32,000 nucleotides of DNA from NCBI RefSeq assembly GCF_900460215.1, contig NZ_UHIA01000003.1:494760-526759 (forward strand). The letters run 5' to 3'. Numbering within the stretch: position 1 is the first letter of the stretch; each line of letters starts with the position of its first letter. Under the pieces are notes generated by a model. That model saw only the letters and a list, made by a program, of their open reading frames with translations, had not been told where the DNA came from and made no database searches. Below are positions 5,876 to 23,860 of this stretch, piece after piece. Made by a program: the position numbers and the translations under genes. The stretch comes from Suttonella indologenes. GTDB lineage: Bacteria; Pseudomonadota; Gammaproteobacteria; Cardiobacteriales; Cardiobacteriaceae.

Positions 5876-5885
5876 GAGAATAACG

Positions 5886-6233: not shown

Positions 6234-6244
6234 ATTAAAAACAA

Positions 6245-6276
6245 ACAGCGAAAACCTAAAAACTTTCGCTGTTTTA
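6245..6276 (+). terminator. rho-independent terminator after cdiA-cdiI
   Basis: Stem acagcgaaa / tttcgctgt with a 10-nt loop, followed by a T-run. A one-mismatch DUS hairpin (ttcaggtagcctgaa, 6281-6295) follows. Confidence 0.6.
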
Positions 6277-6311
6277 CTCTTTCAGGTAGCCTGAAAGAGT
6301 AAAAGCAATAA

Positions 6312-7345: not shown

Positions 7346-7360
7346 AAATAGCAATTTTTG

Positions 7361-7701
7361 TTTAACGGGCGATATAAGCGGAGCAGTGGGTGCTGGGGTA
7401 ACTTCGCTATCTGCTCCGATTATTGCCCAAGTTGCCGATAATTCAGGCAGCCTGAAACCTGTTGTGGATACCGTTAGCGGTTTAGCGATTGGCTACACCA
7501 CAGGCGGCACTGCTGGTGCTTTTACTGGGGCTAATGCGGATTGGAATAATCGGCAGTTGCACCCTGATGAACGGCGTTGGATTAAACAAAATGCAGAAAA
7601 ATTTGCCGAACAACAAGGTATTAGCACCGAAGAAGCAACGGAACGCTTGGCACAACAAGCGGCACGGCAAACGGACGCTTTATGGTTCTTGGCTTTATCA
7701 G
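7361..7701 (+). pseudogene. orphan cdiA fragment (pretoxin segment only), cut off by a REP element
   Basis: Nearly identical to cdiA 4424-4763 (LTGDISGAVGAGVTSLSAP...ANADWNNRQLHPDERRW...ALWFLALS). Homology stops exactly at the REP copy starting at 7701. No toxin or immunity gene follows. Confidence 0.85.
7445..7456 (+). repeat. DNA uptake sequence
   Basis: Exact 12-mer in the orphan fragment; a copy of 4507-4518. Confidence 0.8.
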
Positions 7702-7890
7702 CAAGGTAGGGTGGGCAACTTGTTGCCCACGCGTTTAATCAATTTCAGGCAGCCTGAAATCAGTTTATTGGGTTTGTCAATAAACTATTTTATGTGGCGA
7801 AAATTTATCCAAGTTGGTTAAGGAAAACAACAATGCACTTAAAACCCAAATTAAAACGCGTGGGCAACAAGTTGCCCACCCTACGCTTGC
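7701..7890. repeat. NIME/MITE-like unit: two inverted 33-34-bp REP copies (7701-7733 and 7857-7890) flanking a DUS and a small hairpin
   Basis: Left end is gcaaggtagggtgggcaacttgttgcccacgcg. Right end is cgcgtgggcaacaagttgcccaccctacgcttgc, its reverse complement apart from one extra base. Each copy contains the 9-bp stem GTGGGCAAC/GTTGCCCAC. An internal DUS lies at 7747-7758 and the hairpin agtttattg/caataaact at about 7762-7786. Confidence 0.8.
7747..7758 (+). repeat. DNA uptake sequence inside the REP-flanked unit
   Basis: Exact 12-mer within tttcaggcagcctgaaa (7-bp self-complementary stem). Confidence 0.8.
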
Positions 7891-7926
7891 TTTGCCAACT
7901 ACCGTCAATGGTTAGGGAGCGACTAC

Positions 7927-10900: not shown

Positions 10901-12063
10901 ACCAACTCAAAACACAACTGGAAAAAGGCGAAATCAGCCAAACGGAATACGACAGCAAAGTAGCCAACTGGCAACGAGGGCAAGTGTTGCTCAACAGCAT
11001 TGCCTCAGGCTTAACTGCGCCGACCCAAAGTGCAACAGGTATTGTGGCAGCGACCGCATCGCCAGCGTTGTCGTATGAAATTGGGCAACACTTTAAAGGA
11101 AAAAACGCAGAAGGAACGAGCGCACATATTCTTGCCCATGCGGTATTGGGAGCGGCGGTTGCAGCAGCAGGAGACAATAACGCCCTAGCAGGAGCGATTA
11201 GCGCAGGTGGGGCAGAAGTGGCTGCACCGAGAATAAGTCAATTTTTATATGGAACAGGCAAAGCCAATGAATTGACAGCCGAGCAGAAAGAGACTGTTTC
11301 AGCGATTACAAATTTGCTGGGGGCGGCAACAGGGGCAGTTGTTGGCAACTCAACAGTCAATGCGGTGCAAGGTGGACTGAATGCGGAAAATGCGGTGGAG
11401 AATAATGCAGTCAATCAAAAACAAACAGGTACAATTAATACATTCATCAATGTATTCAACAATACCCCTTCAAAAATGGGACAGACCAAAGGAGAAGCTG
11501 CTCATAATGCTATGTTACGATTAAGTAATACTGATTGGGACTATACTCCCAATGTTACTCCTTATTTTAACTTATTAGAAGGCAGATATATATATACAAG
11601 TGAAGGTGGGTGGATTGATATGGTACATTTCCTATTTTATGCATCTGTGGCATATAAAGAAAAAATCAACTTACAAAGAAAGAATGACATAGATTGGACA
11701 TTACCATCTAATTATGGACAAGTAAGACGCATATCATCAGAAGAAATCCAAAATAAAGCCATTAACGAGGCAATCCAATATGGATATATTCAGGAAAAAA
11801 TGGATTCTTTTAAATCACAACACTCTGCTTATTCATATGAAGATTTACCATCAGATAAGTATGGTGCAATTTTTGGAGCAAAATATTTTAATCCTAAAAC
11901 ACAACAAACTTTTGGAGAACAAATAAATCATTACTTCACCCATATACTAAAAGCACAAGACCCTAAAACAGCACCTAATTATTCATCATTACCAACAGAA
12001 GATTTAGGTGTACATTCAGGCATAGTCAATAAAACAACTAAACCTCTATTCATTGGGAAATGA
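7927..12063 (+). CDS. cdiA: 5'-truncated cdiA copy (silent cassette) with PT-VENN pretoxin domain and an unclassified C-terminal toxin
   Basis: Homology to cdiA starts at 7889, immediately after REP 7857-7890, and corresponds to cdiA 1218 onward (offset 6671). It is near-identical to about 10230 and then diverges. It contains SGSLKNVFDKDKVQSE, a PT-VENN-like stretch (AHAVLGAAVAAAGDNNALAGAISAGGAEVAAP...LNAENAVENN) and an AT-rich toxin of about 218 aa. There is no TPS domain or signal peptide; the first ATG is at 7927. Confidence 0.88.
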   Translation: MLGSLKLDPNNLHKRLGDGYYEQRLINEQITELTGHRRLDGYQNDEEQFKSLMDNSVTAAQTMNLTVGIALSAEQVAQLTSDIVWLVHKEVKLPDGSTQTVLVPQVYVRVKNGDIDGKGALLSGNNAQIDVAGNLKNSGTIAGRNALIINTDTLDNIAGHVHAQKAAISATQDINNIGGNLSAEQALWLKAGNNINSQSTTAGSQNTQGSSTHLDRIAGIYITGTEKGVLAAQAGKDINIIASQISNQSEQGQTQLQAGRNINLDTVQTGKHQETHFDADNHVIRGSTNEIGSNIQTQGDVTLLAGNNLNAKAAQVSSANGTLAVSAKNDINISAGINTTHVDDASKHKGRSGGGNKLVITDKAQSHNETAQSSTFDGKQVVLQAGNDANIKGSNVISDSGTHIQAGNHVHIGTTLTHNQSETYHQTKKSGLMSAGIGFTIGSKTNTQENQSQSTEHTGSTVGSIKGDTAIMAGKHYQQIGSTVSSPEGNNTIHAQSIDIQAAHNQLNSNTTQTYEQKGLTVAFSSPVTDLAQQAIAVAQSSKQVGQSKNGRVNAMAAANAGWQAYQTGKSAQNLANGTTNANQVSISITYGEQKNQQTTQIQASQAQASQIQAGGKTTLIAAGAAEQSNINITGSDVAGKAGTTLIADNNITLQSAEQSSRERSNNKSSGWNAGVAVSFGQGGWSLGITAGGNVGKGYGNGDSVTHHHSHIGDKGSQTIIQSGGDTTLKGAQVIGKGVQVHAKNLSIQSVQDSETYQSKQQNASAQVTVGYGASAGGSYGKSKIRADHASVTEQSGIYAGEDGYQINIAQHTDLKGGIVTSTQSAENKGKNRFSTGTLAHSDIKNHSQYQGKSFGLGASVAVSGKTLGQGEQNTQSSLKTVADKNGTGSSVGYGKDSDNQSSVTRSGINTRNIHITDEAEQIRLTGKTAEQSKVDIYTDTNTDTAEQLSGSLKNVFDKDKVQSELDLQRTVSQDFNRNVQAANTAINRHLDQLKTQLEKGEISQTEYDSKVANWQRGQVLLNSIASGLTAPTQSATGIVAATASPALSYEIGQHFKGKNAEGTSAHILAHAVLGAAVAAAGDNNALAGAISAGGAEVAAPRISQFLYGTGKANELTAEQKETVSAITNLLGAATGAVVGNSTVNAVQGGLNAENAVENNAVNQKQTGTINTFINVFNNTPSKMGQTKGEAAHNAMLRLSNTDWDYTPNVTPYFNLLEGRYIYTSEGGWIDMVHFLFYASVAYKEKINLQRKNDIDWTLPSNYGQVRRISSEEIQNKAINEAIQYGYIQEKMDSFKSQHSAYSYEDLPSDKYGAIFGAKYFNPKTQQTFGEQINHYFTHILKAQDPKTAPNYSSLPTEDLGVHSGIVNKTTKPLFIGK
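10776..10787 (+). repeat. DNA uptake sequence at the constant/variable junction of the second cdiA copy
   Basis: Exact 12-mer encoding GSLK of SGSLKNVFDKDKVQSE. Confidence 0.85.
11395..11406 (+). other. VENN pretoxin/toxin boundary motif
   Basis: gtg gag aat aat is in frame (AENAVENNAV). Composition becomes visibly AT-richer downstream. Confidence 0.85.
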
Positions 12064-12741: not shown

Positions 12742-13026
12742 ATGAGCCAACTCCAAACCTATCCGAAACAACCCACTTCCATGCAAAGCAGTTATGCATT
12801 GGCAAGACGAGCCGAGCAAAATTACCGCGATATGATTAACCAACAATTAATCCACTCGCTAGAACGCATGGCAAACCCAAACTACCAAGCCCAAGATATG
12901 CCCCATGACTTCCATGCTTCGGTTTTGAACAGAATTGCCCAACAAATGGAACAAGCTGATGTACAAGCAAGCGTAGGGTGGGCAACTTGTTGCCCACGCG
13001 TTAATGATAACTTTCAGGCAGCCTGA
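12742..13026 (+). CDS. hypothetical protein; 3' end replaced by a REP plus DUS
   Basis: ATG preceded by aggaac. I recognise no family. From 12967 the reading frame runs through a REP copy and a DUS, so the native C-terminus is probably lost. Confidence 0.3.
   Translation: MSQLQTYPKQPTSMQSSYALARRAEQNYRDMINQQLIHSLERMANPNYQAQDMPHDFHASVLNRIAQQMEQADVQASVGWATCCPRVNDNFQAA
12967..13000. repeat. REP copy (forward orientation)
   Basis: gcaagcgtagggtgggcaacttgttgcccacgcg. It starts the 133-bp block 12967-13099, which is duplicated at 17241-17373. Confidence 0.8.
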
Positions 13027-13027
13027 A
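13016..13027 (+). repeat. DNA uptake sequence
   Basis: Exact 12-mer, 15 nt after REP 12967-13000 and upstream of the cdiA 5' stub. Confidence 0.8.
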
Positions 13028-13056
13028 AGCCTAAAACCACAAGGAAAGCTCCAAAA

Positions 13057-13311
13057 ATGAACAACCGCTTACACAAAGTCATCTTCAACCGCAACACAGG
13101 CTTAATGGCTGTTGTTGCAGAAAATTCCCATAACAACGGCAAATCAAGTGCTACGGATAATGGTATAGCGGTTAGTTTATGCGGATTATTCAATCAATAT
13201 GATTGCATAAAAATAGCCGCAACAAACGCCCTTAAAGTGGCTTATGCACTACAATCCCAAACCACAGCCATTACAGTGTTGGCAGTGAAATTCAAGCCGC
13301 AGGCAAGTTGA
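13057..13311 (+). pseudogene. collapsed 5' end of a cdiA/tpsA gene (ESPR extended signal peptide stub)
   Basis: MNNRLHKVIFNRNTGLMAVVAENSHNNGK is a typical type V ESPR motif (MNKxxYRxIFNxxxGxxVAVSE). An aggaaa RBS lies upstream. There is no TPS domain. At about 13265-13350 an FHA-like piece (SVGSEIQAAGKLNIQSEEDITVSGSL) appears in another frame. Confidence 0.75.
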
Positions 13312-13349
13312 ATATCCAATCAGAAGAAGATATTACCGTTTCAGGCAGC

Positions 13350-13411
13350 CTATTGCTGATATAGTCGATCATGATTTTATCCAAGCGATTATGAAAATTA
13401 CTGGTCATTGA
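13350..13411 (+). pseudogene. toxin-tail scar (last ~20 codons of a toxin of the 17531-20725 family)
   Basis: IADIVDHDFIQAIMKITGH* matches ISDIVDSDFIQAIMKISGH* at the end of the 20725 toxin. The upstream junction falls inside a truncated DUS (tttcaggcagcct|attgct). Confidence 0.8.
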
Positions 13412-13434
13412 TTATCTATATATTGGTAGTTGTT

Positions 13435-13788
13435 ATGAAATGCTATATTAAAGTTGTCATTATTGTTTTTATAATGGTAATGACAACTTCTTGTAATCCT
13501 TGCTTTTTTGCAACTTCGTATTGTTATTATCCGTTTGATAAATATTCTATAAATAGCGATATTGAATATTATGTAAAAGATAACACAACTGATAAACAAA
13601 GAATTGAAGATTTTAGAAGTTGCCTTGCTGTTACTTGCCCTGAAATACATAAGTTGTATAAATTACCTGATGAAAAAGGTAATTATCTGTATGTTATAGA
13701 AAAAACGAATAACATAGAATATATAAACTGTATTGGTGCAAATTCAAGATGTATGCTTAACAATAAAGGATATTCAACAAAATGGTAA
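13435..13788 (+). CDS. small Cys-rich predicted lipoprotein, family A (putative orphan immunity)
   Basis: Signal peptide MKCYIKVVIIVFIMVMTTSC. Conserved motifs are RIEDFRSCL..CPEI and C-terminal CMLNNKGY. Paralogous to 14210-14592 and 21645-22031. Confidence 0.7.
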   Translation: MKCYIKVVIIVFIMVMTTSCNPCFFATSYCYYPFDKYSINSDIEYYVKDNTTDKQRIEDFRSCLAVTCPEIHKLYKLPDEKGNYLYVIEKTNNIEYINCIGANSRCMLNNKGYSTKW

Positions 13789-13790
13789 TA

Positions 13791-14199
13791 ATGAAAAAAT
13801 TATTGGTCATTGATATGTGTTGTTATCGGTTGAGTGTCATCATTGTTTTAATGATGACACTGACTTCTTGCGGTAGGTGCGGACTAATGCCAGTAGTCTC
13901 GTGTTCAAAATATATAGGTTCTGACTTGGAAATGTTTAGCCATAAGGGAAAATCAGAGATGGAAAAAAGAAGAGATTTTGAAAGTTGTATTTCACAATCT
14001 ATATGTCCTGATGAAATTAAAAATGGCAATTTATTAGATGATACTGGTCATTTTGCACAGTATGTTAATGAACGGCAAAAATTAATTATAGAAAAACAAA
14101 AAATATGATGATGCAATGAATAATTGCGTGCAATCTGTTTATAATTGTATGGTAGAAAATAAAGGATATAAGTGTTGTTTTTTGGATAAAGGTTATTAG
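13791..14199 (+). pseudogene. small Cys-rich lipoprotein, family B, disrupted by two 1-nt deletions
   Basis: Aligned with the intact copy at 21242-21634, a C is missing between 14081 and 14082, and the A-run at 14097-14102 is A6 rather than A7. The conserved tail YDDAMNNCVQSVYNCMVENKGYKCCFLDKGY is present in the DNA but out of frame. Confidence 0.8.
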
Positions 14200-14209
14200 A
14201 TTAACAGTT

Positions 14210-14592
14210 ATGTTTGTGCGTTGTTTTAAAGTTGTCATTATTGTTTTTATAATGGTAATGACAACTTCTTGTAATCCTTGTTTATTTGCAACTTCGTCTT
14301 GTAATTATCCTTTTGATGATATGACGATAAGAGCAAACAACGATATTGAATATTTTGTTAAAAATAATACGACTACGAACAACGAATTGATGATTTCAGA
14401 AGTTGCCTTTCCGTTGCTTGTCCTGAAATATATAAATTATATCAATTACCTGATGAAAAGGGTAATTATCAATATATTATAAAAAAATATTATGATAATA
14501 AATACAATGATAATGCAGTCAAATCGACAAATTGTATTGGGGATAATGCAAGATGTATGCTTAATAATAAAGGATATTCAACAAAATGGTAA
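14210..14592 (+). pseudogene. small Cys-rich lipoprotein, family A, frameshifted
   Basis: The N-terminus MFVRCFKVVIIVFIMVMTTSCNPC is identical to 21645. The frame is lost near 14380-14386. The alternative frame restores RIDDFRSCLSVACPEIYKLYQLPDEKGNY...ARCMLNNKGYSTKW*. Confidence 0.8.
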
Positions 14593-14594
14593 TA

Positions 14595-16508
14595 ATGGGT
14601 TACGGCGTTTCAGGCAGTGCGAGTTATAGCAAGTCGAAAGTCAACGCCGATTATGCGTCTGTGAATGAACAAAGCGGCATATTTGCGGGTGAAGACGGTT
14701 ATCAAATCAATGACCACACCGACTTGAAAGGCGGTTTGATTACTTCCACCCAAAAATCGGAAGACGATGGCAAAAACCGTTTTACAACGGGTACGCTCAC
14801 CTTTGAAGACTTGGCGAATCACGCCGAATATAAGGGTGAAGCGATTGGTTTGGGTGTTTCAGGCAGCGTTGCGGGCGATAATCCAAATCAAAACAGCCGT
14901 ATTTATACCGTTAATCAAAGCGGTATGAGTAGCACAATGGGCTATGGCAAAGACAGCGACAAACAATACGCCACAACCCATTCAGGCATTAACACTGCCA
15001 ATATCACCATTCGTGATAACGAAAAACAACAGCAAATCACAGGAATATCGGCGGAAGAAGCGAAACGGGCTGTTAAAGCCGATGTAACAACCGACAACTA
15101 CGCCGAACATTCAGGCAGCCTGAAAAACAATTTCGATAAAGACAAAGTGCAATCAGAGATTGATTTGCAGGTTAAGGTTACACAGGAGTTTGATAGTAAT
15201 CGCAAAGCCTTGCGTGCAGAAATCAACAAAGCAGCAGATGAAAAAAGACAAAAAGCCGAAGATATAAGAAGAGAAAATTATATTGACGGCAAAAACGGTT
15301 ATAACACCGCAGAATCTTTGGCTTTGGATAAGTCTGCCGACAAATTGGAAAAAGTCGCTTTTTACACTGATTTGGCATTAGGTGGATTGTATGGAATTGG
15401 CGATAGCACGGCTTTAACTTATGTAACAGGTAGTGCAGTGGCTAATCCAGCCATTCGAGCGGGTACAAGACCAAGACAGTTTTGGTTTGAGAAATGTGAC
15501 GGCGATAGTTTGTATTGTTCTAATAGAAATTATGACGATACGGCGGATAGAAAAATTTATGATAAAAACGGGCAAGAAATTGACACTAAAGATCCAAATT
15601 ACACTGGAATGGTTGAGATTGGTGATAAACGGCAAATCTCTGATTTAAATGAGATTGAACCTAACAAAGTAACTGGAAGCATCGTTACTACAAATGACGG
15701 TATATTGAACCCACGAAATGACGCTCTAAAAAATGGGATTAAGCAACAAAAATGGGAAGTAGATAAGGAAGGTATTTTGCTTATCTACAATCCGCCAACA
15801 GGCAATTCTATTTCTGAACTTTTGTATGCCGCTTATGATAAAACTAACGATTTGTTAGGCGGTCGTTTGCCTTTAACTTCTGCACAAAAAGCGAACCTTG
15901 AATTAAATCAATATGCAGAAAGTAAAGGTTATAAGATTGATAGTAACAATCATAGTCGTGGCGGTTTAACTCGAAGTGTTTCTGATAAATATTCAGTCAG
16001 ACATAATCTGCCTTTACCGTATAACAATGTTCAATTCTTCGGTAGTGCGGCAAATGTAGATGATTATACAAACTACATGAACGAATATGGTAGGAAAGAT
16101 TTTAATATTTCTGCCACAACACATTACACAGATTTTGTTGGTAGAACTCCATTAGTTGCATTGCGTAGTAAGCATATTGTTGGTGGAAATGAACCAACAG
16201 GCGGAGTTGAAGATAAATGGTTCTTATATTCGCACAGCAGTTATTTTGCAGAAAAACCAACCCCATACCTTGTAAATGAACACGGTTTTTATATGGATAA
16301 AAATGGCGACCTGATAAAAGATAATTCAGGAAATCCTATAAAAATGACGGAAGAAAATAAATTGGAATATTCAACAAAAGTTCCAAATCCATATTTAGAT
16401 GATTTTGAACAGAAATGGATAAAAGGACAAACTCATAACAAGGTGTCAGGTGATAATCCGTCTCTTCCAGTTCCAGTTAGAACAAAAAAACAACAGGGAG
16501 AGCGATAA
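14595..16508 (+). CDS. cdiA: 5'-truncated cdiA cassette with alpha/beta-hydrolase-like (lipase/esterase-type) C-terminal toxin
   Basis: From 14598 it is homologous to cdiA from about 3566 (GYG.S.....SKSK.NA...SV.EQSGI.AGEDGYQIN..HTDLKGGLITSTQKSEDDGKNRFTTGTLTFEDLAN). The SGSLKNNFDKDKVQSEIDLQ junction is identical to that of cdiA. The unique tail has NGILNP.NDA, a nucleophile-elbow-like NHSRGG (15951-15965), FGSAANVDD and YSHSSYF, a Ser-Asp-His order consistent with an alpha/beta hydrolase. The family assignment is inference. Confidence 0.8.
   Translation: MGYGVSGSASYSKSKVNADYASVNEQSGIFAGEDGYQINDHTDLKGGLITSTQKSEDDGKNRFTTGTLTFEDLANHAEYKGEAIGLGVSGSVAGDNPNQNSRIYTVNQSGMSSTMGYGKDSDKQYATTHSGINTANITIRDNEKQQQITGISAEEAKRAVKADVTTDNYAEHSGSLKNNFDKDKVQSEIDLQVKVTQEFDSNRKALRAEINKAADEKRQKAEDIRRENYIDGKNGYNTAESLALDKSADKLEKVAFYTDLALGGLYGIGDSTALTYVTGSAVANPAIRAGTRPRQFWFEKCDGDSLYCSNRNYDDTADRKIYDKNGQEIDTKDPNYTGMVEIGDKRQISDLNEIEPNKVTGSIVTTNDGILNPRNDALKNGIKQQKWEVDKEGILLIYNPPTGNSISELLYAAYDKTNDLLGGRLPLTSAQKANLELNQYAESKGYKIDSNNHSRGGLTRSVSDKYSVRHNLPLPYNNVQFFGSAANVDDYTNYMNEYGRKDFNISATTHYTDFVGRTPLVALRSKHIVGGNEPTGGVEDKWFLYSHSSYFAEKPTPYLVNEHGFYMDKNGDLIKDNSGNPIKMTEENKLEYSTKVPNPYLDDFEQKWIKGQTHNKVSGDNPSLPVPVRTKKQQGER
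15113..15124 (+). repeat. DNA uptake sequence at the constant/variable junction of the hydrolase cassette
   Basis: Exact 12-mer encoding GSLK of SGSLKNNFDKDKVQSE. About 90 bp around it are identical to cdiA 4063-4150. Confidence 0.85.
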
Positions 16509-16939
16509 TGAAAAAATACTTCTTTTCAGTCTGCTTGTTATTAACAGGCTGTGGGGTTTTGTTTGATGACCCACTAACAAGATTTTGGAATGGCGGTTAT
16601 TTTTTGTTTCCAGACAAAGAAATAGCAAGTGATGGAATTTATAAAACTTCGGATACTGACTTGCATTATTACGAAAGTTTGTCGCTTGAACAAAGAAAAC
16701 GCTATCTAAAATTTAAGCCTATTAAGGATAAATGCGAACATAAGTATTCAGATAGAACAAAATATGATTACGCTACACAAATGGCAAATATCGTTAGGTG
16801 TTTTAATGAACAAGGCTATCAATCTGAAACTGCTTTTATATTGAATGGACATACAATAACTCAAAAAGGTAGTATTTGCACAAAAGATGAACCCAAACAA
16901 TGCGATAATGTTATGCGTAGTTATATCGTTTTATTTTAA
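16508..16939 (+). CDS. cdiI: predicted lipoprotein, putative immunity for the hydrolase-like toxin
   Basis: The ATG overlaps the toxin stop (TAATG at 16506-16510). Lipobox LLTGC. 143 aa and AT-rich. Confidence 0.7.
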   Translation: MKKYFFSVCLLLTGCGVLFDDPLTRFWNGGYFLFPDKEIASDGIYKTSDTDLHYYESLSLEQRKRYLKFKPIKDKCEHKYSDRTKYDYATQMANIVRCFNEQGYQSETAFILNGHTITQKGSICTKDEPKQCDNVMRSYIVLF

Positions 16940-16980
16940 TTGAAATGTAACTTGAAAATTGACAATACAGGAGCAACAAA

Positions 16981-17232
16981 ATGAAATCGATTTATTTTAT
17001 TATTTTTTCTTTTTTATTAACTGCTTGCGTGGTTAATAATGATGATTATTTTGCTGAACCGCCTACACCATACTTAATTAACGAACACGGTTTTTATATG
17101 AATAAAAAAGGTGATTTAATTAGAGATAGTCACGGTAACGCAATTAAAATGACAGAAGAAAATAAACACAATTTCCCCAAAGAATCCGCTAATCCTTATT
17201 ACGAAAAATGGATAAAACAAAAACGAAAATAA
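16981..17232 (+). CDS. 83-aa predicted lipoprotein whose mature part is homologous to the C-terminal extension of the adjacent hydrolase-like toxin
   Basis: Strong AGGAG lies 8 nt upstream. Lipobox FLLTAC. YFAEPPTPYLINEHGFYMNKKGDLIRDSHGNAIKMTEENK matches the toxin tail YFAEKPTPYLVNEHGFYMDKNGDLIKDNSGNPIKMTEENK (16243-16360). Confidence 0.65.
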   Translation: MKSIYFIIFSFLLTACVVNNDDYFAEPPTPYLINEHGFYMNKKGDLIRDSHGNAIKMTEENKHNFPKESANPYYEKWIKQKRK

Positions 17233-17240
17233 ATAACAAA

Positions 17241-17274
17241 GCAAACATAGTGTAGGCAACTTGTTGCCCACGCG
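17241..17274. repeat. REP copy with a degenerate 5' arm
   Basis: gcaaacatagtgtaggcaacttgttgcccacgcg has four substitutions of G in the left arm relative to 12967-13000. It is followed by the same ttaatgataac plus DUS plus cdiA 5' leader. Confidence 0.7.
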
Positions 17275-17289
17275 TTAATGATAACTTTC

Positions 17290-17301
17290 AGGCAGCCTGA
17301 A
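17290..17301 (+). repeat. DNA uptake sequence
   Basis: Exact 12-mer; a copy of 13016-13027. Confidence 0.8.
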
Positions 17302-17330
17302 AGCCTAAAACCACAAGGAAAGCTCCAAAA

Positions 17331-17372
17331 ATGAACAACCGCTTACACAAAGTCATCTTCAACCGCAACACA
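17331..17372 (+). pseudogene. second cdiA 5' stub (first 14 codons of the ESPR)
   Basis: atgaacaaccgcttacacaaagtcatcttcaaccgcaacaca (MNNRLHKVIFNRNT) is identical to 13057-13098 and ends at REP 17373. Confidence 0.8.
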
Positions 17373-17531
17373 GCAAGCGTAGGGTGGGCAACTTGTTGCC
17401 CACGCAGTTCAATCAGATACACATAAAATGATGTTTTAATGTGAAATATTTGATTTCAGGCTGCCTGAAAAATAAAATGATGTGGTGTGCATCAAACCGC
17501 GTGGGCAACAAGTTGCCCACCCTACGCTTGC
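17373..17531. repeat. NIME/MITE-like unit: inverted REP pair (17373-17405 and 17498-17531) flanking a DUS
   Basis: Same terminal repeats as 7701-7890 but a different interior. The central tttcaggctgcctgaaa lies at 17454-17470. The right REP abuts the next cdiA cassette to the base. Confidence 0.8.
17455..17466 (-). repeat. DNA uptake sequence (minus strand) inside the REP-flanked unit
   Basis: ttcaggctgcct within tttcaggctgcctgaaa. Confidence 0.8.
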
Positions 17532-20500
17532 TAGACCGAATAGCAGGTATTTACATCACGGGCACAGAAAAAGGTGTTTTAGCAGCACAAGCTGGTAAGG
17601 ACATCAACATCATTGCCAGTCAAATCAGCAATCAATCAGAGCAAGGACAAACCCAGCTGCAAGCAGGGCGCAACATCAATCTGGATACCGTACAAACCGG
17701 CAAACATCAAGAAACCCATTTTGATGCTGATAACCATGTTATTCGCGGTTCAACTAACGAAATTGGTAGCAATATTCAAACGCAAGGTGATGTTACCCTG
17801 TTAGCAGGCAACAACCTCAATGCCAAAGCTGCCCAAGTCAGCAGCGCAAACGGTACACTCGCTGTGTCTGCCAAAAATGACATCAACATCAGCGCAGGCA
17901 TCAATACGACCCATGTTGATGATGCGTCCAAACACAAAGGCAGAAGTGGCGGTGGCAATAAATTGGTTATTACCGACAAAGCCCAGAGCCACAACGAAAC
18001 CGCTCAAAGCAGCACTTTTGACGGCAAACAAGTTGTATTGCAGGCAGGAAACGACGCCAACATAAAGGGCAGCAATGTCATTTCTGACAGTGGCACCCAT
18101 ATCCAAGCAGGCAATCATGTTCACATTGGCACAACCCTAACCCATAATCAAAGCGAAACCTATCATCAAACCAAAAAATCAGGATTGATGAGTGCAGGTA
18201 TCGGCTTCACGATTGGCAGCAAGACAAACACACAAGAAAACCAATCCCAAAGCACCGAACATACAGGCAGCACCATAGGCAGCATCAAAGGCGATACCGC
18301 CATTATGGCAGGTAAACACTATCAACAAATCGGCAGTACCGTTTCCAGCCCGGAAGGCAACAACACCATCCATGCCCAAAGCATAGACATTCAAGCAGCA
18401 CACAACCAATTAAACAGCAATACCACCCAAACCTATGAACAAAAAGGCTTAACGGTGGCATTCAGTTCGCCCGTTACCGATTTGGCACAACAAGCTATTG
18501 CCGTCGCACAAAGCAGCAAACAAGTCGGACAAAGCAAAAATGGTCGTGTCAATGCCATGGCAGCTGCCAATGCAGGCTGGCAAGCCTATCAAACAGGTAA
18601 GAGTGCACAAAACTTAGCCAACGGGACAACCAATGCCAACCAAGTCAGCATCTCCATTACCTATGGCGAGCAAAAAAACCAACAAACCACCCAAATTCAA
18701 GCAAGCCAAGCCCAAGCAAGTCAAATTCAAGCAGGCGGTAAAACCACATTAATCGCCGCAGGTGCAGCAGAACAATCCAACATCAACATAACAGGTTCAG
18801 ATGTAGCGGGTAAAGCAGGTACCACCCTGATTGCCGATAACAACATCACACTCCAATCCGCCGAACAAAGCAGCAGAGAACGCAGCAACAACAAAAGCAG
18901 CGGCTGGAATGCAGGTGTCGCCGTATCATTCGGACAAGGAGGCTGGTCATTAGGCATTACCGCAGGTGGCAATGTCGGCAAAGGCTACGGCAATGGCGAC
19001 AGCGTAACACACCACCATAGCCATATTGGCGACAAAGGCAGCCAAACCATTATCCAAAGCGGTGGCGATACCACACTAAAAGGCGCGCAAGTCATCGGCA
19101 AAGGCGTACAAGTTCATGCCAAAAACCTAAGTATTCAAAGCGTACAAGATAGCGAAACCTATCAAAGCAAACAACAAAACGCCAGTGCCCAAGTGACCGT
19201 AGGCTACGGCTTCAGTGCCGGCGGCAATTACAGCCAAAGCAAAATCAACGCCGACCACGCTTCCGTCACCGAACAAAGCGGTATTTATGCCGGAGAAGAC
19301 GGTTATCAAATCAATGTGCAGAACCACACCGATTTGAAAGGCGGTTTGATTACTTCCACCCAAAAATCGGAAGACGATGGCAAAAACCGTTTTACAACGG
19401 GTACGCTCACCTTTGAAGACTTGGCGAATAAGTCGGAATATTCGGGCAGTTCGTTTGGCGTTGGTTTAAGCGGCTCAATGGGCGGCGGTGAGAGTATGCC
19501 CAAAGAAATTGGCGGACAAAAACTGATGACTTTGGGTAGCAATAAAACTTTTGACCTAACCGAACCTGATGGCACGCCGACTGGCGAAAGCAAAACCGTT
19601 GCTATGGGTTCGCTGAAAACTCAAACAGGTATCGGACACGACAGTGAAAGCCAGCATTCAGTAACACATTCAGGCATTAACACCGCCAATATTGTGATTG
19701 CTGATGAGAATAAGCAAAAAGAACTCACAGGCAAAACTGCCGATGAAACAATCGGTGCAATCAAAACCGATGTAACTGTGGAAAACTACGCAGAGCATAT
19801 AGGCAGCCTGAAAAATAACTTCGACAAAGAAAAAGTTTTGAAAGAACTGAACATTCAAGTCGAAGTTACCAAAGATTTCAGCGAAAACGCCAAAGCCACG
19901 ATTGCCCAAGTTTATGAACCCAAGCAAGCGAAATTGCGAGAAGAAATCAAAGAATTGGAGAAGAAAAAAGACTTTTCTGACCCTAATTCAAAAGAATGGG
20001 AAATTTATCAGGCGGAACAAGATAAACTTTATGACAAAATTTATAACCTGCAATATCAAAAACGGATTTTGGAAACCGTTGTTGGTATTGTGGCGTTAGA
20101 CCCTGATACGGCGATTACGCAGGGCTTATTGCAAGGCGTTGCTACAAAATTACGCCGAGAAACTTTGGATAATTCACGCAAATTTCCTGGCATTGTCGAT
20201 AAAAACGGCAAAGTCTTATTAAGCAATGTTTCTTACGATAGCGATTACTTTGACGGCGTGAAGTTGGGCGGTGTTCGAGTTGATTTAGATGTTATTTGTG
20301 GTGATACGAGATGTGTAAAAAACCCAAATGGAACATTAACCTATGTAGGTGATGAGAAGTTTCCAAAATTTGAAAATGTTATAAGTCCGACTGATAATCC
20401 AGACGGATTTAAAAAGATTTCTGGTGCAACTGGTGGTATTCAAGGAAAAAAAGGAACATTTTTCGGTGAATATAATATTGGAAGCATGAGAGATACAGTC

Positions 20501-20725
20501 GTAGAAGGTTTTGCTGGCACTCATGATTATATTGGCGGTCAAATGTGGGGCTTTTATGACAAAGACGGTAATACTACGCCAGGTCGAGATACATACAATA
20601 AAAAAGATGAATATTGGTCAAGTAAAATTACCGTTGCAGCAATTCCAGTTGCCGCTCCGTTTGCCATTAGCGATATAGTCGATAGCGACTTTATACAGGC
20701 AATTATGAAAATAAGCGGTCATTAA
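17531..20725 (+). CDS. cdiA: 5'-truncated cdiA copy (silent cassette) with unclassified C-terminal toxin ending in a hydrophobic tail
   Basis: Homology to cdiA starts at 17531 (= cdiA 1895, offset 15636) and is near-identical to about 19445. The junction is IGSLKNNFDKEKVLKELNIQVEVTKDF. The unique C-terminus includes GGIQGKKGTFFGEYNIGSMRDTVVEGFAGTHDYIGG and ITVAAIPVAAPFAISDIVDSDFIQAIMKISGH*. The ORF-track frame stays open back to GTG 17441 only because it reads through the REP. Confidence 0.85.
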   Translation, partial: LDRIAGIYITGTEKGVLAAQAGKDINIIASQISNQSEQGQTQLQAGRNINLDTVQTGKHQETHFDADNHVIRGSTNEIGSNIQTQGDVTLLAGNNLNAKAAQVSSANGTLAVSAKNDINISAGINTTHVDDASKHKGRSGGGNKLVITDKAQSHNETAQSSTFDGKQVVLQAGNDANIKGSNVISDSGTHIQAGNHVHIGTTLTHNQSETYHQTKKSGLMSAGIGFTIGSKTNTQENQSQSTEHTGSTIGSIKGDTAIMAGKHYQQIGSTVSSPEGNNTIHAQSIDIQAAHNQLNSNTTQTYEQKGLTVAFSSPVTDLAQQAIAVAQSSKQVGQSKNGRVNAMAAANAGWQAYQTGKSAQNLANGTTNANQVSISITYGEQKNQQTTQIQASQAQASQIQAGGKTTLIAAGAAEQSNINITGSDVAGKAGTTLIADNNITLQSAEQSSRERSNNKSSGWNAGVAVSFGQGGWSLGITAGGNVGKGYGNGDSVTHHHSHIGDKGSQTIIQSGGDTTLKGAQVIGKGVQVHAKNLSIQSVQDSETYQSKQQNASAQVTVGYGFSAGGNYSQSKINADHASVTEQSGIYAGEDGYQINVQNHTDLKGGLITSTQKSEDDGKNRFTTGTLTFEDLANKSEYSGSSFGVGLSGSMGGGESMPKEIGGQKLMTLGSNKTFDLTEPDGTPTGESKTVAMGSLKTQTGIGHDSESQHSVTHSGINTANIVIADENKQKELTGKTADETIGAIKTDVTVENYAEHIGSLKNNFDKEKVLKELNIQVEVTKDFSENAKATIAQVYEPKQAKLREEIKELEKKKDFSDPNSKEWEIYQAEQDKLYDKIYNLQYQKRILETVVGIVALDPDTAITQGLLQGVATKLRRETLDNSRKFPGIVDKNGKVLLSNVSYDSDYFDGVKLGGVRVDLDVICGDTRCVKNPNGTLTYVGDEKFPKFENVISPTDNPDGFKKISGATGGIQGKKGTFFGEYNIGSMRDTVVEGFAGTHDYIGGQMWGFYDKDGNTTPGRDTYNKKDEYWSSKITVAAIPVAAPFAISDIVDSDFIQAIMKISGH
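19801..19812 (+). repeat. DNA uptake sequence at the constant/variable junction of the third large cdiA copy
   Basis: Exact 12-mer encoding GSLK of IGSLKNNFDKEKV. Confidence 0.85.
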
Positions 20726-20735
20726 GGTTTAGCTT

Positions 20736-21173
20736 ATGTATCGATTATTATCAACAGCCCTTGTATTGTTGATAATGCAGGGCTGTTATTACACAACTAT
20801 TGATAATGAAAAATGCTTTGTTGCCCCACAAAGCGTTCATTGTCCTGTAAGTTCTGATATTGAAAATGTTATTAGAAAAAATCCTAATAAAAGCATAAAT
20901 CAAGTTAGGAGTGATATTAAATATTGTGCTAATATGTATTTTTCCAATATACGGGAATTAAATATTCCGCAAGATTTTGATAATTACATTTTCATACTTA
21001 AAGAAAAAGGTATTCCAAGAAATGATAAGGAATTGGCTTATAATGCAGTTAGAAATATGCACATTATTTGTTTGAGTTCTTTGGGTGGTTATGATTATTA
21101 TCAAAAAACCGCAGAATTTCAGAAAATAGATTATAAAAAAGAAATGGAGAAATTGTTAAATAAAAACCATTAA
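20736..21173 (+). CDS. cdiI: predicted lipoprotein, putative cognate immunity for the 20725 toxin
   Basis: Starts 10 nt after the toxin stop. Signal peptide with Cys (LLIMQGC). Cys-containing and AT-rich. Loosely resembles families A/B (VRSDIKYC, CLSSLGGYDY). Confidence 0.65.
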   Translation: MYRLLSTALVLLIMQGCYYTTIDNEKCFVAPQSVHCPVSSDIENVIRKNPNKSINQVRSDIKYCANMYFSNIRELNIPQDFDNYIFILKEKGIPRNDKELAYNAVRNMHIICLSSLGGYDYYQKTAEFQKIDYKKEMEKLLNKNH

Positions 21174-21174
21174 A

Positions 21175-21240
21175 TTTGCTATTGCCGATATAGTTGATAG
21201 CGACTTTATCCAAGCAATTATGAAAATTAGTGGTCATTGA
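21175..21240 (+). pseudogene. toxin-tail scar
   Basis: FAIADIVDSDFIQAIMKISGH* is homologous to the last ~21 codons of the 20725 toxin. It lies directly after the immunity gene stop. Confidence 0.8.
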
Positions 21241-21241
21241 T

Positions 21242-21634
21242 ATGGACATAATTTTTTTTCGTTGGAATGTAATCATTTTTTCAATGATTACACTATGTTC
21301 TTGTGAAAGTTGCGGACCAATGCCAGTAGTCTCGTGTTCAAAATATGTGGGTTCTGACTTGGAAATGTTTAGCCATAATGAGAAAAATGAAATAGAAAAA
21401 AGAAAGGATTTTGAAAGTTGTATTGCACAATCTGTATGTCCTTATGAAATTAAAAATGGTAATTTATTAGATGATACTGGTCATTTTGCACAGTATGTTG
21501 ATGAAAGACAAAAACTTAATTATAGAAAAACAAAAAAATATGATGATGCAATGAATAATTGCGTGCAATCTGTTTATAATTGTATGGTAGAAAATAAAGG
21601 ATATAAGTGTTGTTTTTTGGATAAAGGTTATTAG
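21242..21634 (+). CDS. small Cys-rich predicted lipoprotein, family B (intact copy)
   Basis: The ATG lies 1 nt after the scar stop. MDIIFFRWNVIIFSMITLCSC. Motifs RKDFESCIAQSVCPYEI and NCMVENKGYKCC. A T8 run at 21252-21259 lies in codons 4-6. 21320-21735 repeats 13885-14300. Confidence 0.7.
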   Translation: MDIIFFRWNVIIFSMITLCSCESCGPMPVVSCSKYVGSDLEMFSHNEKNEIEKRKDFESCIAQSVCPYEIKNGNLLDDTGHFAQYVDERQKLNYRKTKKYDDAMNNCVQSVYNCMVENKGYKCCFLDKGY

Positions 21635-21644
21635 ATTAACAGTT

Positions 21645-22031
21645 ATGTTTGTGCGTTGTTTTAAAGTTGTCATTATTGTTTTTATAATGGTAATGACAAC
21701 TTCTTGTAATCCTTGTTTATTTGCAGTAACCAGTTGCACTCCGAAAGGATATACACACCATAAAGGATATGATGTTGATTTTTATATTAAAAACAATGTA
21801 GATGATAAAACAAAAATTGAAGACATTCGATACTGTCTTTCTATCTCCTGTCCAGAAGAAATAAAAAAATATAATTTTCCAAATGAAAAGGGAAACTATA
21901 TACAAGAAATTAGAAAAATATTGAATAATTCACCTGTTGCTAACAATTGTTTAAGAAATAGTTATTTTTGTATGGAAAATAAAGGATATTCAAAAAGACC
22001 ATTGGTAACGAAAGATAAAGATTATGAATAA
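21645..22031 (+). CDS. small Cys-rich predicted lipoprotein, family A (intact copy)
   Basis: MFVRCFKVVIIVFIMVMTTSCNPC. Motifs KIEDIRYCLSISCPEEI and FCMENKGY. Confidence 0.7.
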   Translation: MFVRCFKVVIIVFIMVMTTSCNPCLFAVTSCTPKGYTHHKGYDVDFYIKNNVDDKTKIEDIRYCLSISCPEEIKKYNFPNEKGNYIQEIRKILNNSPVANNCLRNSYFCMENKGYSKRPLVTKDKDYE

Positions 22032-22044
22032 GTTAGTAAAATCT

Positions 22045-22170
22045 AAAAATGATGAAACTATTTCCGACAAGGTAACTGCTGTCGCCATTCCTGTCGCTGC
22101 ACCGTTTGCTATTGCTGATATAGTCGATCATGATTTTATCCAAGCAATTATGAAAATTAGTGGTCATTGA
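22045..22170 (+). pseudogene. toxin-tail scar (longer, ~41 codons)
   Basis: KNDETISDKVTAVAIPVAAPFAIADIVDHDFIQAIMKISGH* aligns with KDEYWSSKITVAAIPVAAPFAISDIVDSDFIQAIMKISGH* of the 20725 toxin. Confidence 0.8.
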
Positions 22171-22171
22171 T

Positions 22172-22196
22172 ATGGACATAATTTTTTTTCGTTGGA
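22172..22196 (+). pseudogene. stub of the first ~8 codons of a family-B lipoprotein gene, cut by a REP palindrome
   Basis: atggacataattttttttcgttgga is identical to 21242-21266; the REP begins immediately after it. Confidence 0.7.
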
Positions 22197-22236
22197 GCAA
22201 GGTAGGGTGGGCAACAAGTTGCCCACCCTACCTTGC
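22197..22236. repeat. 40-bp REP palindrome with perfect 19-bp arms around an AA centre (both arms full length)
   Basis: gcaaggtagggtgggcaac aa gttgcccaccctaccttgc. Confidence 0.85.
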
Positions 22237-22470
22237 TATTCACACAGCAGTTATTTTGCGGAAGTGCCTGAACAGTATCAAAGGGATGAAAATGGAAATG
22301 TTGTTGAGAAAAATGGCGAACCTGTTTTAACGGAAGCTTGGAAAGATTATACGGAAAAGTGGGGAGTTCCTAAAATGGGTAATGATGGGAAATATATCAA
22401 TCATGCAGTTCCCAAGTTAGTAGTTCCCAATAAACCAAATGGAGAAAAATATGAAGAAAAACATTTCTAA
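22237..22470 (+). pseudogene. C-terminal fragment of a second hydrolase-like toxin variant
   Basis: YSHSSYFAEVPEQYQRDENGNVVEKNGEPVLTEAWKDY is homologous to LYSHSSYFAEKPTPYLVNEHGFYMDKNGDLIKDNSG of the 16508 toxin. It starts at the REP edge. ORF 22192 is open only by reading through the REP. Confidence 0.75.
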
Positions 22471-22762
22471 TCTAATGTTAATATTATTTTGCTCAATAAT
22501 CCTTTCTAGTTGCTTTTTTGGCAGTTGTGCAAATTGGAATTGCTCCAAACTTAATCCACGCTGGGTAAAAGCAGTTGATACATGCACAACTGAAAATCGC
22601 ACCTTTGTTTTGCATGAATTAGGCAACCAATTAGGATATAAATCTATTACCGAAGTCTCATTTAGTGAAATTGGGCAACATATTTCTTCTCAATGTATTT
22701 ACCATAGCGGTAAATATGATATTCATAAAGATAAACAGTATGGGCATTTGTTTGCAAAATGA
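22451..22762 (+). CDS. predicted lipoprotein, putative orphan immunity for the truncated hydrolase-like toxin
   Basis: GGAG lies 6 nt upstream of ATG 22451. MKKNISNLMLILFCSIILSSC lipobox. The gene overlaps the end of the toxin fragment. Cys-rich. Confidence 0.65.
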   Translation: MKKNISNLMLILFCSIILSSCFFGSCANWNCSKLNPRWVKAVDTCTTENRTFVLHELGNQLGYKSITEVSFSEIGQHISSQCIYHSGKYDIHKDKQYGHLFAK

Positions 22763-22861: not shown

Positions 22862-23860
22862 TCACACAGTTTGGGCTTGATAAACGGTTTGATGTTTAAG
22901 TACACCAAAACAAATGTGTACCAATCGGCGCATACTCGCCCCAATCGCTTGCATTTTTGTTTTACCACGCGCCAACAAGCGCTCATAATGGGCTTGAATA
23001 TCAGGATTGTAACGCTTGGCAACAATGGCTGGCATATACAGTAAAGCCCGCATTCTGCTGTTGCCACGTTTGCTCAACATGACTTTGCCTTTGAATTGAC
23101 CCGATTGTTTTTCTTTGGGAATTAAGCCCCAAAAGACTGCCATTTGTGCTGCGCCGGTAAATTGTCGGCTGCGGTACAATACCGCCATATCTAAGGCAGT
23201 TGCTTTACCCACAGCAGGAATACTTTGCAATAGCTTAATATCGTTTTTTAAATCAGGGTGTTGGTCAATGTGATTATCCACATCGTTTTGCAAGTCGGCA
23301 ATATTTTGTTCCAAAGCCGCAATCATTTGGTTCAATGACAACAACACTTTCTCGGGTGTATTGGCGATTTGGGCTGAATGTAAGCGATTATTTTCACGTT
23401 GTAAATCGGCTTTCAAAGCGTCCAAACGAGCCAATTTGGCTTTAAGCTGGCGAATGTGGGTCGCTTCAGGCTGCCACAGTTCAATATCTATGGTGGGCGT
23501 TGCACCGTATAAGGCAATCACTTTGCTGTCGCTTTTGTCAGTTTTGTGCACCGTACCCAGAGATTTGGCAAAATCAAGGATGTACTTGGGATTAACGATG
23601 CTGACTTTGATGCCTTTATCGTGTAAAAAATATGCCAACAACTCGTGATAAACGCCTGTTGCTTCCATAATCACATGAACGGTAGATAAATCAGTGGTGA
23701 TGTTTTTCTCAATCCATTCAATGAATTTCAGGCAGCCATCGGGATTGTTGTCCAAAATTTTGCTGCGGATGCTGCGTTTGCGGATGTCTTTAAGGTAGGC
23801 AATGTCCCATTTTTGTTGAGAAACATCAACGCCTATGATATGTTGAATGCTGTCCACCAT
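22862..23860 (-). CDS. IS110-family transposase/recombinase (DEDD N-terminal domain plus IS116/IS110/IS902 C-terminal domain)
   Basis: IIGVDVSQQKWDIA..., VIMEATGVYHELLAYFL..KGIKVSIVNP, KTDKSDSKVIA, and C-terminal LQSIPAVGKATALDM...KGKVMLSKRGNSRMRALLYMPA are family hallmarks. An aaggaaag RBS is present. Confidence 0.9.
   Translation of the reverse strand: MVDSIQHIIGVDVSQQKWDIAYLKDIRKRSIRSKILDNNPDGCLKFIEWIEKNITTDLSTVHVIMEATGVYHELLAYFLHDKGIKVSIVNPKYILDFAKSLGTVHKTDKSDSKVIALYGATPTIDIELWQPEATHIRQLKAKLARLDALKADLQRENNRLHSAQIANTPEKVLLSLNQMIAALEQNIADLQNDVDNHIDQHPDLKNDIKLLQSIPAVGKATALDMAVLYRSRQFTGAAQMAVFWGLIPKEKQSGQFKGKVMLSKRGNSRMRALLYMPAIVAKRYNPDIQAHYERLLARGKTKMQAIGASMRRLVHICFGVLKHQTVYQAQTV

Follow-up and report, generated by a model that had tools for sequence, protein, structure and literature searches.

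We analysed a stretch of 32,000 nucleotides from Suttonella indologenes (contig NZ_UHIA01000003.1, positions 494,760 to 526,759; here called the window), and in particular a set of small genes within it that encode cysteine-rich lipoproteins and lie behind the remains of toxin genes. The window is an island for contact-dependent inhibition (CDI; cdiA/cdiC/cdiB), in which all modules are on the + strand. The small genes fall into three groups, designated A, B and C, and form two arrays, at 13349–14592 and 20736–22196. We consider it probable that they encode CdiI-type immunity proteins of an undescribed superfamily, which would be located in the periplasm and neutralize a CDI toxin that acts on the envelope. 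In the explanation that fits best, C would be the immunity gene in the cognate position, and the A and B copies would be orphans. The homology of the genes, their lipoprotein signals, their adjacency to toxins, their polymorphism, the toxin scars and the pseudogenisation are all directly observed.

The position of the genes relative to the toxin is very regular. In nearly all the loci collected from other genomes (designated by L numbers), the gene after the toxin either overlaps the toxin stop codon or starts within about 15 nt of it, and encodes a lipoprotein of 97–147 aa. There are 83 such directly adjacent toxin–lipoprotein pairs (77 unique), found in Beta- and Gammaproteobacteria. For each of A, B and C there is at least one locus in which an intact toxin is directly upstream. 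For C this is the case in the window, and L001 has a 142-aa variant of C (C142) in the corresponding position. In L086, which is a metagenomic contig, a gene 99% identical to the B2 copy of the window comes directly after an intact toxin, with an A2-type gene next in line. In L088 the toxin has an A-like gene (P0030) directly behind it, and in two Neisseria lactamica genomes (including L006) an A-type gene comes directly after an orphan toxin. An earlier note on this DNA, made from the letters of the sequence, had proposed that the genes are retained immunities whose toxins were deleted, and their occupation of the immunity position behind intact toxins in other strains, recurring across the 83 pairs, supports this. 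The loci have the features by which a CDI system is recognized, namely a toxin at the C-terminus of a CdiA with FHA repeats, an immunity gene directly downstream, a TpsB transporter in the locus, and covariation of toxin and immunity, although this last mapping is not strictly one-to-one (L001 compared with L086, discussed below).

All the gene coordinates in the earlier note were reproduced when they were derived again. The first array contains A1 (13435–13788, +), which is intact, encodes 117 aa with the lipobox TTSC, and is a putative orphan lipoprotein immunity gene; B1 (13791–14199, +), a pseudogene with two 1-nt deletions; and A2 (14210–14592, +), a pseudogene with one 1-nt deletion, of an A near 14374. 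The deletions in B1 are a lost C at 14081 and the shortening of an A7 run to A6 at 14097–14102. A2 is intact in sister strains (P0002, L001, L086, L006). The second array starts with C (20736–21173, +; 145 aa, lipobox MQGC), which is in the cognate position behind the intact toxin, and continues with the intact orphans B2 (21242–21634, +; 130 aa) and A3 (21645–22031, +; 128 aa). It ends with a stub of a B gene (22172–22196, +), consisting of the first eight codons, identical to the start of B2. The stub is truncated by a palindromic element resembling a repetitive extragenic palindrome (REP-like; GTGGGCAACAAGTTGCCCAC core) at 22199–22231. A T8 run at 21252–21259 in B2 recurs in the stub. The count of two frameshifted copies among the five full-length ones thus agrees with the earlier one, the two being B1 and A2, and B1 does need two 1-nt repairs, of which one is in the A6/A7 run.

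Three remnants of the toxin 3′ end precede these genes, as had been noted. Scar 1 (13349–13411, +) comprises the last 20 codons and the stop of the toxin (PIADIVDHDFIQAIMKITGH), scar 2 (21175–21240, +) encodes FAIADIVDSDFIQAIMKISGH followed by the stop, and scar 3 (22039–22170, +) contains the last ~43 toxin codons (ending KNDETISDKVTAVAIPVAAPFAIADIVDHDFIQAIMKISGH and the stop). They are 68–93% identical in DNA sequence to each other and to the true end of the toxin (20660–20725). There is also a fourth micro-scar between A1 and B1 (13791–13813, +), which is 23 nt long, has the sequence ATGAAAAAATTATTGGTCATTGA, encodes MKI[S]GH and the stop, and matches the toxin-final ATGAAAATTAGTGGTCATTGA. 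It overlaps the annotated start of B1, and it is therefore likely that B1 originally began at an ATG in the same frame, at 13815. Every scar ends with the stop codon of the toxin, which abuts the start codon of the immunity gene (TGA-T-ATG). The deletions that produced them appear to have spared the translation-initiation region of the immunity genes.

The A and B proteins are homologous, with 31% identity (BLASTP E = 3e-14). The relationship of C to them is more distant. A direct comparison of C with A or B was not significant by BLASTP, and hhalign gave P = 0.0016, which was not persuasive by itself. The link is made by intermediates, in particular the 142-aa gene of L001, which matches C through its C-like C-terminal half (BLASTP E = 2e-39) and matches A through its A/B-like N-terminal half (BLASTP E ~1e-5). 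C also matches cognate-position lipoproteins of other Neisseriaceae (BLASTP E = 1e-5). The suggestion that the gene at 20736 is a distant relative of A and B is therefore correct by a transitive BLASTP chain, rather than directly. A hidden Markov model (HMM) was built from the cognate-position genes of other species and used to rank the 244 open reading frames (ORFs) of at least 50 codons in the window. When the three closest sequences were left out of the model, the top ORFs were A1 (E = 2.8e-6), A2 and A3; when they were included, B and C were also top-ranked. Apart from the A, B and C ORFs the ranking brought up only the lipoprotein at 16508, and that weakly.

The superfamily is characterized by two motifs, (E/Q)R..D...C(GG) and then CM..KGY near the C-terminus. 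In an alignment of 58 sequences, including the window genes, three Cys (that of the lipobox, that following R..D... and that of CM) are invariant, as is the Tyr of KGY. The A, B and C copies satisfy the lipoprotein rule PROSITE PS51257 on inspection of their translations; this requires that the N-terminal region is basic, that a hydrophobic core is present, and that the Cys of the lipobox, [LIVMFWSTAG]2-[LIVMFYSTAGCQ]-[AGS]-C, falls at residue 15–35. An HMM scan of 90 loci gave 197 immunity-like ORFs, of which 145 pass the strict PS51257 regular expression, the remainder being mostly fragments or ORFs with boxes of the LNGC or QTGC type. Counting the lipidated Cys, the mature proteins contain five Cys in 68 of these ORFs and seven in 62; in the window the counts from the translations are seven for A, nine for B and five for C. 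Five or seven Cys leave an even number free, as expected of disulfide-bonded periplasmic proteins. Compared with the bulk of the superfamily, A and B carry an insertion (...C-P-x-E-I...) that follows the first conserved Cys, together with a further, matching Cys ahead of CM, and these probably form an additional disulfide.

When a combined A and B profile was run exhaustively with HMMER against 1.84 billion representative proteins, just five true relatives were returned, and the strict A/B branch is thus very rare. The broader superfamily surfaced solely through genomic context. The description of these genes as a new immunity family has therefore to be modified: the lipoprotein family is indeed unrecognized, but A and B do not stand alone, and form a rare, Cys-enriched branch of a large superfamily. 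Ten members of it gave no match in Pfam or NCBIfam. A profile of the immunity proteins matched PDB sequences at the level of signal peptides only (E > 0.2), and there was no significant similarity to the Pfam CdiI family PF07262, or to Imm, Tli/Tai/Tsi, MliC/PliC or LprI proteins. The AlphaFold2 model of A1, built on 10 sequences, is all-helical with a predicted local distance difference test (pLDDT) score of 78.8, and its best Foldseek match to PDB folds had E = 7.7. Homology to a housekeeping lipoprotein family, which would speak against an immunity function, was thus not found in the Pfam, NCBIfam, PDB sequence or PDB fold searches. Genome annotators label these lipoproteins as either 'hypothetical protein' or 'lipoprotein'.

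The window has a single intact toxin of this family, encoded by the ORF at 17441–20725 (+), a 5′-truncated orphan cdiA with FHA-2 repeats (Fil_haemagg_2 is found in the product) and without PT-VENN. Its last 222 residues matched 23 related protein clusters in a collection of 5.8 billion proteins, from Neisseria, many Pasteurellaceae and an Enterobacter plasmid, none with a Pfam domain. In a scan of one genome per species the toxin was encoded in at least 107 species, including those of Haemophilus, Aggregatibacter, Snodgrassella, Morganella, Enterobacter, Yokenella, Stenotrophomonas, Bordetella, Cupriavidus, Limnohabitans, Methylotenera and Methylophaga. The module was also seen in metagenome-assembled genomes labelled Synechococcus (L046, L052) and Bifidobacterium (L066). 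It is otherwise confined to Proteobacteria, and these placements are therefore most likely to be binning contamination.

In many loci the reading frame is open across the entire 5-kb upstream flank, so that the toxin is the C-terminus of a very large protein; the CdiA lengths of ~1900 aa obtained in this way are bounded by the flank and are not true protein lengths. The long upstream ORFs of L028, L034 and L044 were checked, and all three have FHA-2 repeats while none has PT-VENN. PT-VENN (PF04829) is absent from the toxin-bearing proteins, though it is found in the neighbouring CdiA at 7927–12063. The PT-VENN (or ELYN) motif that would mark the start of a CdiA C-terminal region is missing, and the boundary here is the sequence GVKLGGVRVD. 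The close relatives of the Suttonella/Neisseria type that were compared are at least 93% identical up to GVKLGGVRVD and then 60–88% identical over ~110 residues, with identity recovering across the last ~35 residues, here called the tail. Because the drop comes exactly after GVKLGGVRVD, the polymorphic unit is a small domain of ~145 residues, which in the window is encoded at 20285–20725 (+), with the conserved tail at 20620–20725.

Across the whole family the invariant features of the toxin are a pair of Cys (ICG..RC), G-TGG-Q, E-x3-G-x-HD-xx-GG, GN, and AIP...P-A in the tail; in the window toxin the motifs read ICG..RC, TGGxQ and E..AGTHD..GGQ. Residues E149, H155 and D156 (numbering of alignment A4) are obvious candidates for a catalytic or metal-binding role. 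The AlphaFold2 model of the toxin (pLDDT 72.9, predicted TM-score 0.68) is mixed α/β, and the tail forms a long helix. A Foldseek search with this model against PDB folds gave only E > 8, the toxin profile against PDB sequences gave E ≥ 0.11, and 22 toxins searched against Pfam gave only scattered matches with E > 0.01. There was no significant similarity to Ntox/Tox, colicin M, lysozyme-like, NlpC/P60 or lipase families. The earlier note had recognized neither the toxin nor the immunity family, and the profile and structure searches gave no significant match for either. NCBIfam, and searches of PDB sequences with single proteins, were equally negative for both. A lysozyme-like or papain-like reading of the E..HD motif together with the Cys pair was considered and was dropped, since it has no fold support.

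Toxicity, binding and a periplasmic site of action are predictions from these sequences, and the mechanism that we propose is as follows. The lipoprotein would leave the cytoplasm through Sec, receive its lipid at the lipobox Cys and acquire two to four disulfides by oxidation. In E. coli, lipoproteins without Asp at position +2 are anchored in the outer membrane. None of the lipoproteins here has Asp at +2, and the E. coli rule would place them on the outer membrane, on its periplasmic side. In this position they would bind and neutralize the ~145-aa, disulfide-bonded toxin from the C-terminus of CdiA, which would itself act in the periplasm or on the envelope. Protection would extend both to toxin delivered by neighbours and to the producer's own toxin. 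CdiA C-termini are stowed in the periplasm of the producer before delivery (PMC11630599), and a periplasm-active toxin would thus need an immunity protein of just this kind.

The earlier note had argued for action on the envelope from the hydrophobic tail of the toxin. This is a weak argument: the tail is conserved across the family and is modelled as a helix, and it may be a core helix that is buried in the fold. There are better arguments, namely that the immunity protein is a lipoprotein, that it has an even number of free Cys, that the toxin has a conserved Cys pair, and that the toxin has no separate entry domain. When the small size of the toxin and the absence of a VENN site are added to these, a toxin that acts in the periplasm or on the envelope is the most likely.

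A different possibility is that the lipoproteins are true immunity proteins but that the target is cytoplasmic, the toxin being intercepted in the periplasm before it crosses the inner membrane, and the stored toxin being shielded there. CDI toxins do cross the periplasm of the target and are stored in that of the producer (PMC11630599, PMC9086364); CdiA is exported unfolded by Sec, so that cytoplasmic immunity is not strictly required; and the toxin matched no known activity in the PDB fold, PDB profile and Pfam searches. We nevertheless regard this as unlikely, because the polymorphic domain is only ~145 aa and has no separate entry domain or VENN processing site, and because the invariant Cys pair suggests folding and activity in an oxidising compartment. 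Moreover, a term search of the 2022 review (PMC9086364) found no lipoprotein or periplasmic immunity described for the characterised cytoplasm-acting CDI toxins that it covers.

Among pairs in which the CdiA backbone is more than 80% identical, identity in the toxin domain correlates with identity of the immunity protein with r = 0.83. Several observations weigh against the proposal of a periplasmic immunity family. Over all pairs, the divergence of the immunity protein follows that of the backbone (r = 0.58) nearly as closely as that of the toxin (r = 0.63), and the correlation in this global Mantel test is therefore mostly phylogeny. In the variable domain, L001 and L086 have toxins that are 88% identical, yet their first genes, C142 and B2, are only 22% identical. 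Neither the toxin fold nor the immunity fold matches the PDB, the models are of moderate confidence (pLDDT 73 and 79), and scans for promoters and terminators gave no signal above background.

The mismatch of toxins and first genes extends to a third locus. The toxin of L006 is 78–82% identical to those of L001 and L086, and it is followed by an A-type gene (A128) that is second in the L001 array. Taken together, the toxins of the related loci L001 (region 4574–9209), L086 and L006 are 78–88% identical in the polymorphic domain, while their first genes come from the subfamilies C142, B2 and A128, which share 22–35% identity. The pairing is thus not simply one of a toxin with the first gene downstream. 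It is possible that specificity is set by a few toxin residues; that the first gene is not always the cognate one, with recombination in the conserved tail reshuffling the arrays; or that several lipoproteins act jointly.

Arrays of this kind are common. More than half of the loci have stacks of two to seven immunity-like genes, often with each gene behind a toxin 3′ fragment, and the pattern of scars and orphans seen in the window is therefore the usual appearance of this family. We suggest that toxin/immunity cassettes, some of them exchanged with Neisseria, replaced one another in succession, and that deletions would have removed most of each old toxin, leaving the last 7–43 codons abutting the next immunity start. 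Gene conversion between the arrays would have followed, and the unselected orphans B1 and A2 would now be decaying by point deletions. A case of an almost completely deleted cdiA is found at 13057–13311 (+), which is a 5′ remnant with an ESPR-type signal peptide (MNNRLHKVIFNRNT...); the equivalent ORF in L001 is tagged PF13018 ESPR. The remnant runs into scar 1, and this cdiA has thus collapsed to its two ends with its interior deleted. A second cdiA 5′ end, with the same MNNRLHKVIFNRNT... ESPR signal peptide, is located at 17331–17426, and both 5′ ends are detached from any TPS domain. A repeat at 12965–13099 is 97% identical to 17239–17373.

The window and L001 are 96–99% identical across the island, but differ in toxin variant and in immunity content. 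The C gene with scar 2 (20736–21241) is 97.8% identical in DNA sequence to N. lactamica (L006/L007), and A2 with the start of the next orphan (14208–14734) is 94.9% identical to the same species. DNA as similar as this implies that cassettes moved between a gammaproteobacterium and Neisseria, and it indicates recent transfer of immunity cassettes between classes, among bacteria of the human upper airway. The protein cluster of 20736 also has members on at least 1000 Neisseria contigs, some of them from N. meningitidis. Within the window, the two arrays share a block of 199 nt with 99% identity (14092–14290 and 21527–21725), while its flanks are 62–83% identical, which argues for recent gene conversion. 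The block extends from the 3′ end of B through the spacer into the signal-peptide region of A, and this last region is 95% identical between A1 and A2.

It could be asked whether the arrays are simply non-functional debris, under no selection and with frames that are intact by chance. Two of the five copies are frameshifted, the losses at 14081 in B1 and 14374 in A2 (two of the three frameshifts) are specific to the window strain, so that decay is ongoing, and the promoter signal, as noted above, does not exceed background. We think this quite improbable as an account of the arrays as a whole, since A1, A3 and B2 are intact, the Cys and motifs are kept across the divergence within the A family (42–72%) and between A and B (~30%), and their counterparts in other strains and in Neisseria have unbroken frames. 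Orphan CDI immunity genes can also protect against the toxins of neighbours.

It is also very improbable that the lipoproteins are accessory or biogenesis factors of CdiA, and that the C-terminal domain is not a toxin. The precedent for such a factor is BcpO of the Burkholderia bcpAIOB loci (PMC3415462, PMC9086364), which is a small predicted lipoprotein in a CDI locus, without a known function. The comparison, which is by description, shows that BcpO is an extra gene beside a separate BcpI immunity gene, is not polymorphic and forms no arrays, whereas here the immunity position, where the gene overlaps or abuts the cdiA stop, is filled by the lipoprotein alone, and there is no other candidate immunity gene. 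An accessory factor is expected to be single-copy and conserved. In contrast, the lipoprotein diversifies along with the polymorphic C-terminal domain, piles up in orphan arrays behind toxin fragments, and is exchanged horizontally as a cassette.

Phase variation, in which surface lipoproteins would be switched by homopolymer tracts, was hinted at in the earlier note from the coding runs at 14097–14102 and 21532–21538 (A6/A7) and at 21252–21259 (T8), but is scarcely credible, because in a comparison of three to four sequences the A6 allele of B1 is common to the window and L001, the other two frameshifts are outside homopolymer runs, the T8 tract is the same in both window copies and aligns to L086 without an indel, and at the G+C content of the arrays (27–35%, compared with 45–50% in the cdiA cores) short A/T runs are to be expected. 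The frameshifts in B1 and A2 are best read as ordinary pseudogenisation of unselected orphans, and not as switching.

The proposed lipoprotein immunity system has clear likenesses to systems already described. The closest in organization are the meningococcal islands with tpsA, tpsC cassettes and IORFs (Arenas et al., 2013; PMC3848433): the toxin is again the polymorphic C-terminus of a TpsA/CdiA with FHA repeats, the immunity gene is immediately downstream, 5′-truncated orphans are stacked behind the main gene, TpsB is in the locus, and cassettes are exchanged by recombination. Lipoprotein IORFs are not mentioned in that paper. The modules described here differ from these and from other CDI modules in having no PT-VENN boundary, in having as immunity protein a secreted, disulfide-rich lipoprotein rather than a cytoplasmic or integral-membrane protein, and in having many orphans that keep just 7–43 toxin codons.

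Among type VI secretion systems (T6SS), the Tle/Tli lipases, the Tae/Tai amidases, and VgrG2b with its immunity lipoprotein (PMC6899460) are similar in combining an envelope toxin with a periplasmic immunity protein that is exported by Sec and often lipidated. The delivery is however of type Vb here and not type VI, and no similarity in sequence or fold was detected. Bacteriocins of the colicin M type are periplasm-acting polymorphic toxins with a small exported immunity protein. The likeness to them is one of logic only, in that the immunity protein would be exported and the toxin would be periplasmic; the delivery differs, and the toxin and immunity profiles had no significant PDB match.

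For CDI toxins of the ionophore type, immunity proteins are membrane proteins. The ionophores (CdiA-CT EC93 family; Halvorsen et al., 2024, PMC11630599) resemble the present system in being polymorphic toxin/immunity pairs, with immunity proteins of ~30% identity. They attack the envelope, at the inner membrane, from its periplasmic side, and the toxin described here is likewise predicted to act on the envelope. According to the same source each ionophore is a bundle of five helices with glycine zippers, and its N-terminal entry domain hijacks a protein of the inner membrane. Here, in contrast, the modelled toxin is mixed α/β and has a Cys pair but no entry domain, and a soluble lipoprotein would serve as the immunity protein. 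Membership of the ionophore family was considered and was dropped, since the predicted architecture differs and no lipoprotein immunity is described in the passages of PMC11630599 that were consulted.

The remainder of the island can be described briefly. It starts with a large CdiA (155–5875, +), followed by an orphan module (6321–7345, +) that is a barnase-like/barstar pair: the ORF at 6321–7040 has a barnase-type ribonuclease domain (PF00545, E = 7e-7), and the barstar gene at 7031–7345 (PF01337, E = 5e-14) overlaps it. The 5′-truncated CdiA with a PT-VENN toxin (7927–12063, +) comes next, and then the first small-gene array. Between this and the cdiA at 17441 there is an orphan C-terminal fragment with a different toxin (14586–16508, +) and the lipoprotein gene of that toxin (16508–16939, +; lipobox LLLTGC). 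Behind the second array there are an IS110-type transposase (22862–23860, minus strand), an HlyC-family acyltransferase resembling cdiC (24183–24641, Pfam E = 8e-47) directly upstream of TpsB, and the TpsB transporter itself (24696–26483), which is named as ShlB/FhaC/HecB family. The gene order is thus cdiA...I...(orphans)...C-B, with cdiC and TpsB downstream of the cdiA/orphan array and of the transposase.

In the orphan toxin at 14586–16508 the residues NHSRGG are similar to a GxSxG nucleophile elbow, and the sole Pfam signal of this toxin is a faint match to DUF7379. Tail remnants of this toxin type (...YSHSSYFAE...) are fused to or precede lipoprotein genes at 16981–17232 and 22439–22762, in a remnant area that includes 22192–22470. 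This is a second unannotated toxin type with lipoprotein partners of its own, and it may be a lipase-like periplasmic effector. Copies of the palindromic REP-like element, with the core GTGGGCAACAAGTTGCCCAC or GTGGGCAACTTGTTGCCCAC, are located at module boundaries (12966–13002, 17240–17276, 17372–17408, 17501–17525 and 22195–22231), and some of them precede the 5′-truncated cdiA at 17441. Read through, the element gives GNKLPTLRL or GWATCCPR.

The CDI toxins discussed in the literature consulted are cytoplasmic nucleases or other enzymes, or inner-membrane ionophores, and their immunity proteins are cytoplasmic or membrane proteins. No description of a lipoprotein CdiI, or of an enzymatic CdiA-CT that acts in the periplasm, was found in the 2022 CDI review (PMC9086364), in PMC11630599, in PMC3848433 or in full-text searches of open-access papers. 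We put forward, tentatively, the stronger suggestion that this may be the first recognized class of type Vb (CDI) effector that ends in the periplasm. It would comprise a disulfide-bonded toxin of ~145 aa with an apparently new fold and no VENN or entry domain, and an outer-membrane lipoprotein as CdiI, found in more than 100 species, with the arrays acting as transferable protective genes.

It is concluded that the toxin and its putative lipoprotein immunity protein are two unannotated and widespread families within the CDI framework, and that the window contains an orphan array of the rare Cys-rich branch which is typical of the family and partly decayed. If the proposal is true, it would add to CDI an envelope-targeting branch such as T6SS already has, and would provide a CDI toxin that is tractable and independent of any inner-membrane receptor. 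In genome annotation, two sizeable groups of 'hypothetical protein' would receive names, among them the lipoprotein gene on at least 1000 Neisseria contigs. The findings also document an exchange of cassettes between Suttonella, a member of the Gammaproteobacteria, and Neisseria, a member of the Betaproteobacteria. In ecological terms, the orphan arrays would predict which neighbours' toxins a strain resists.

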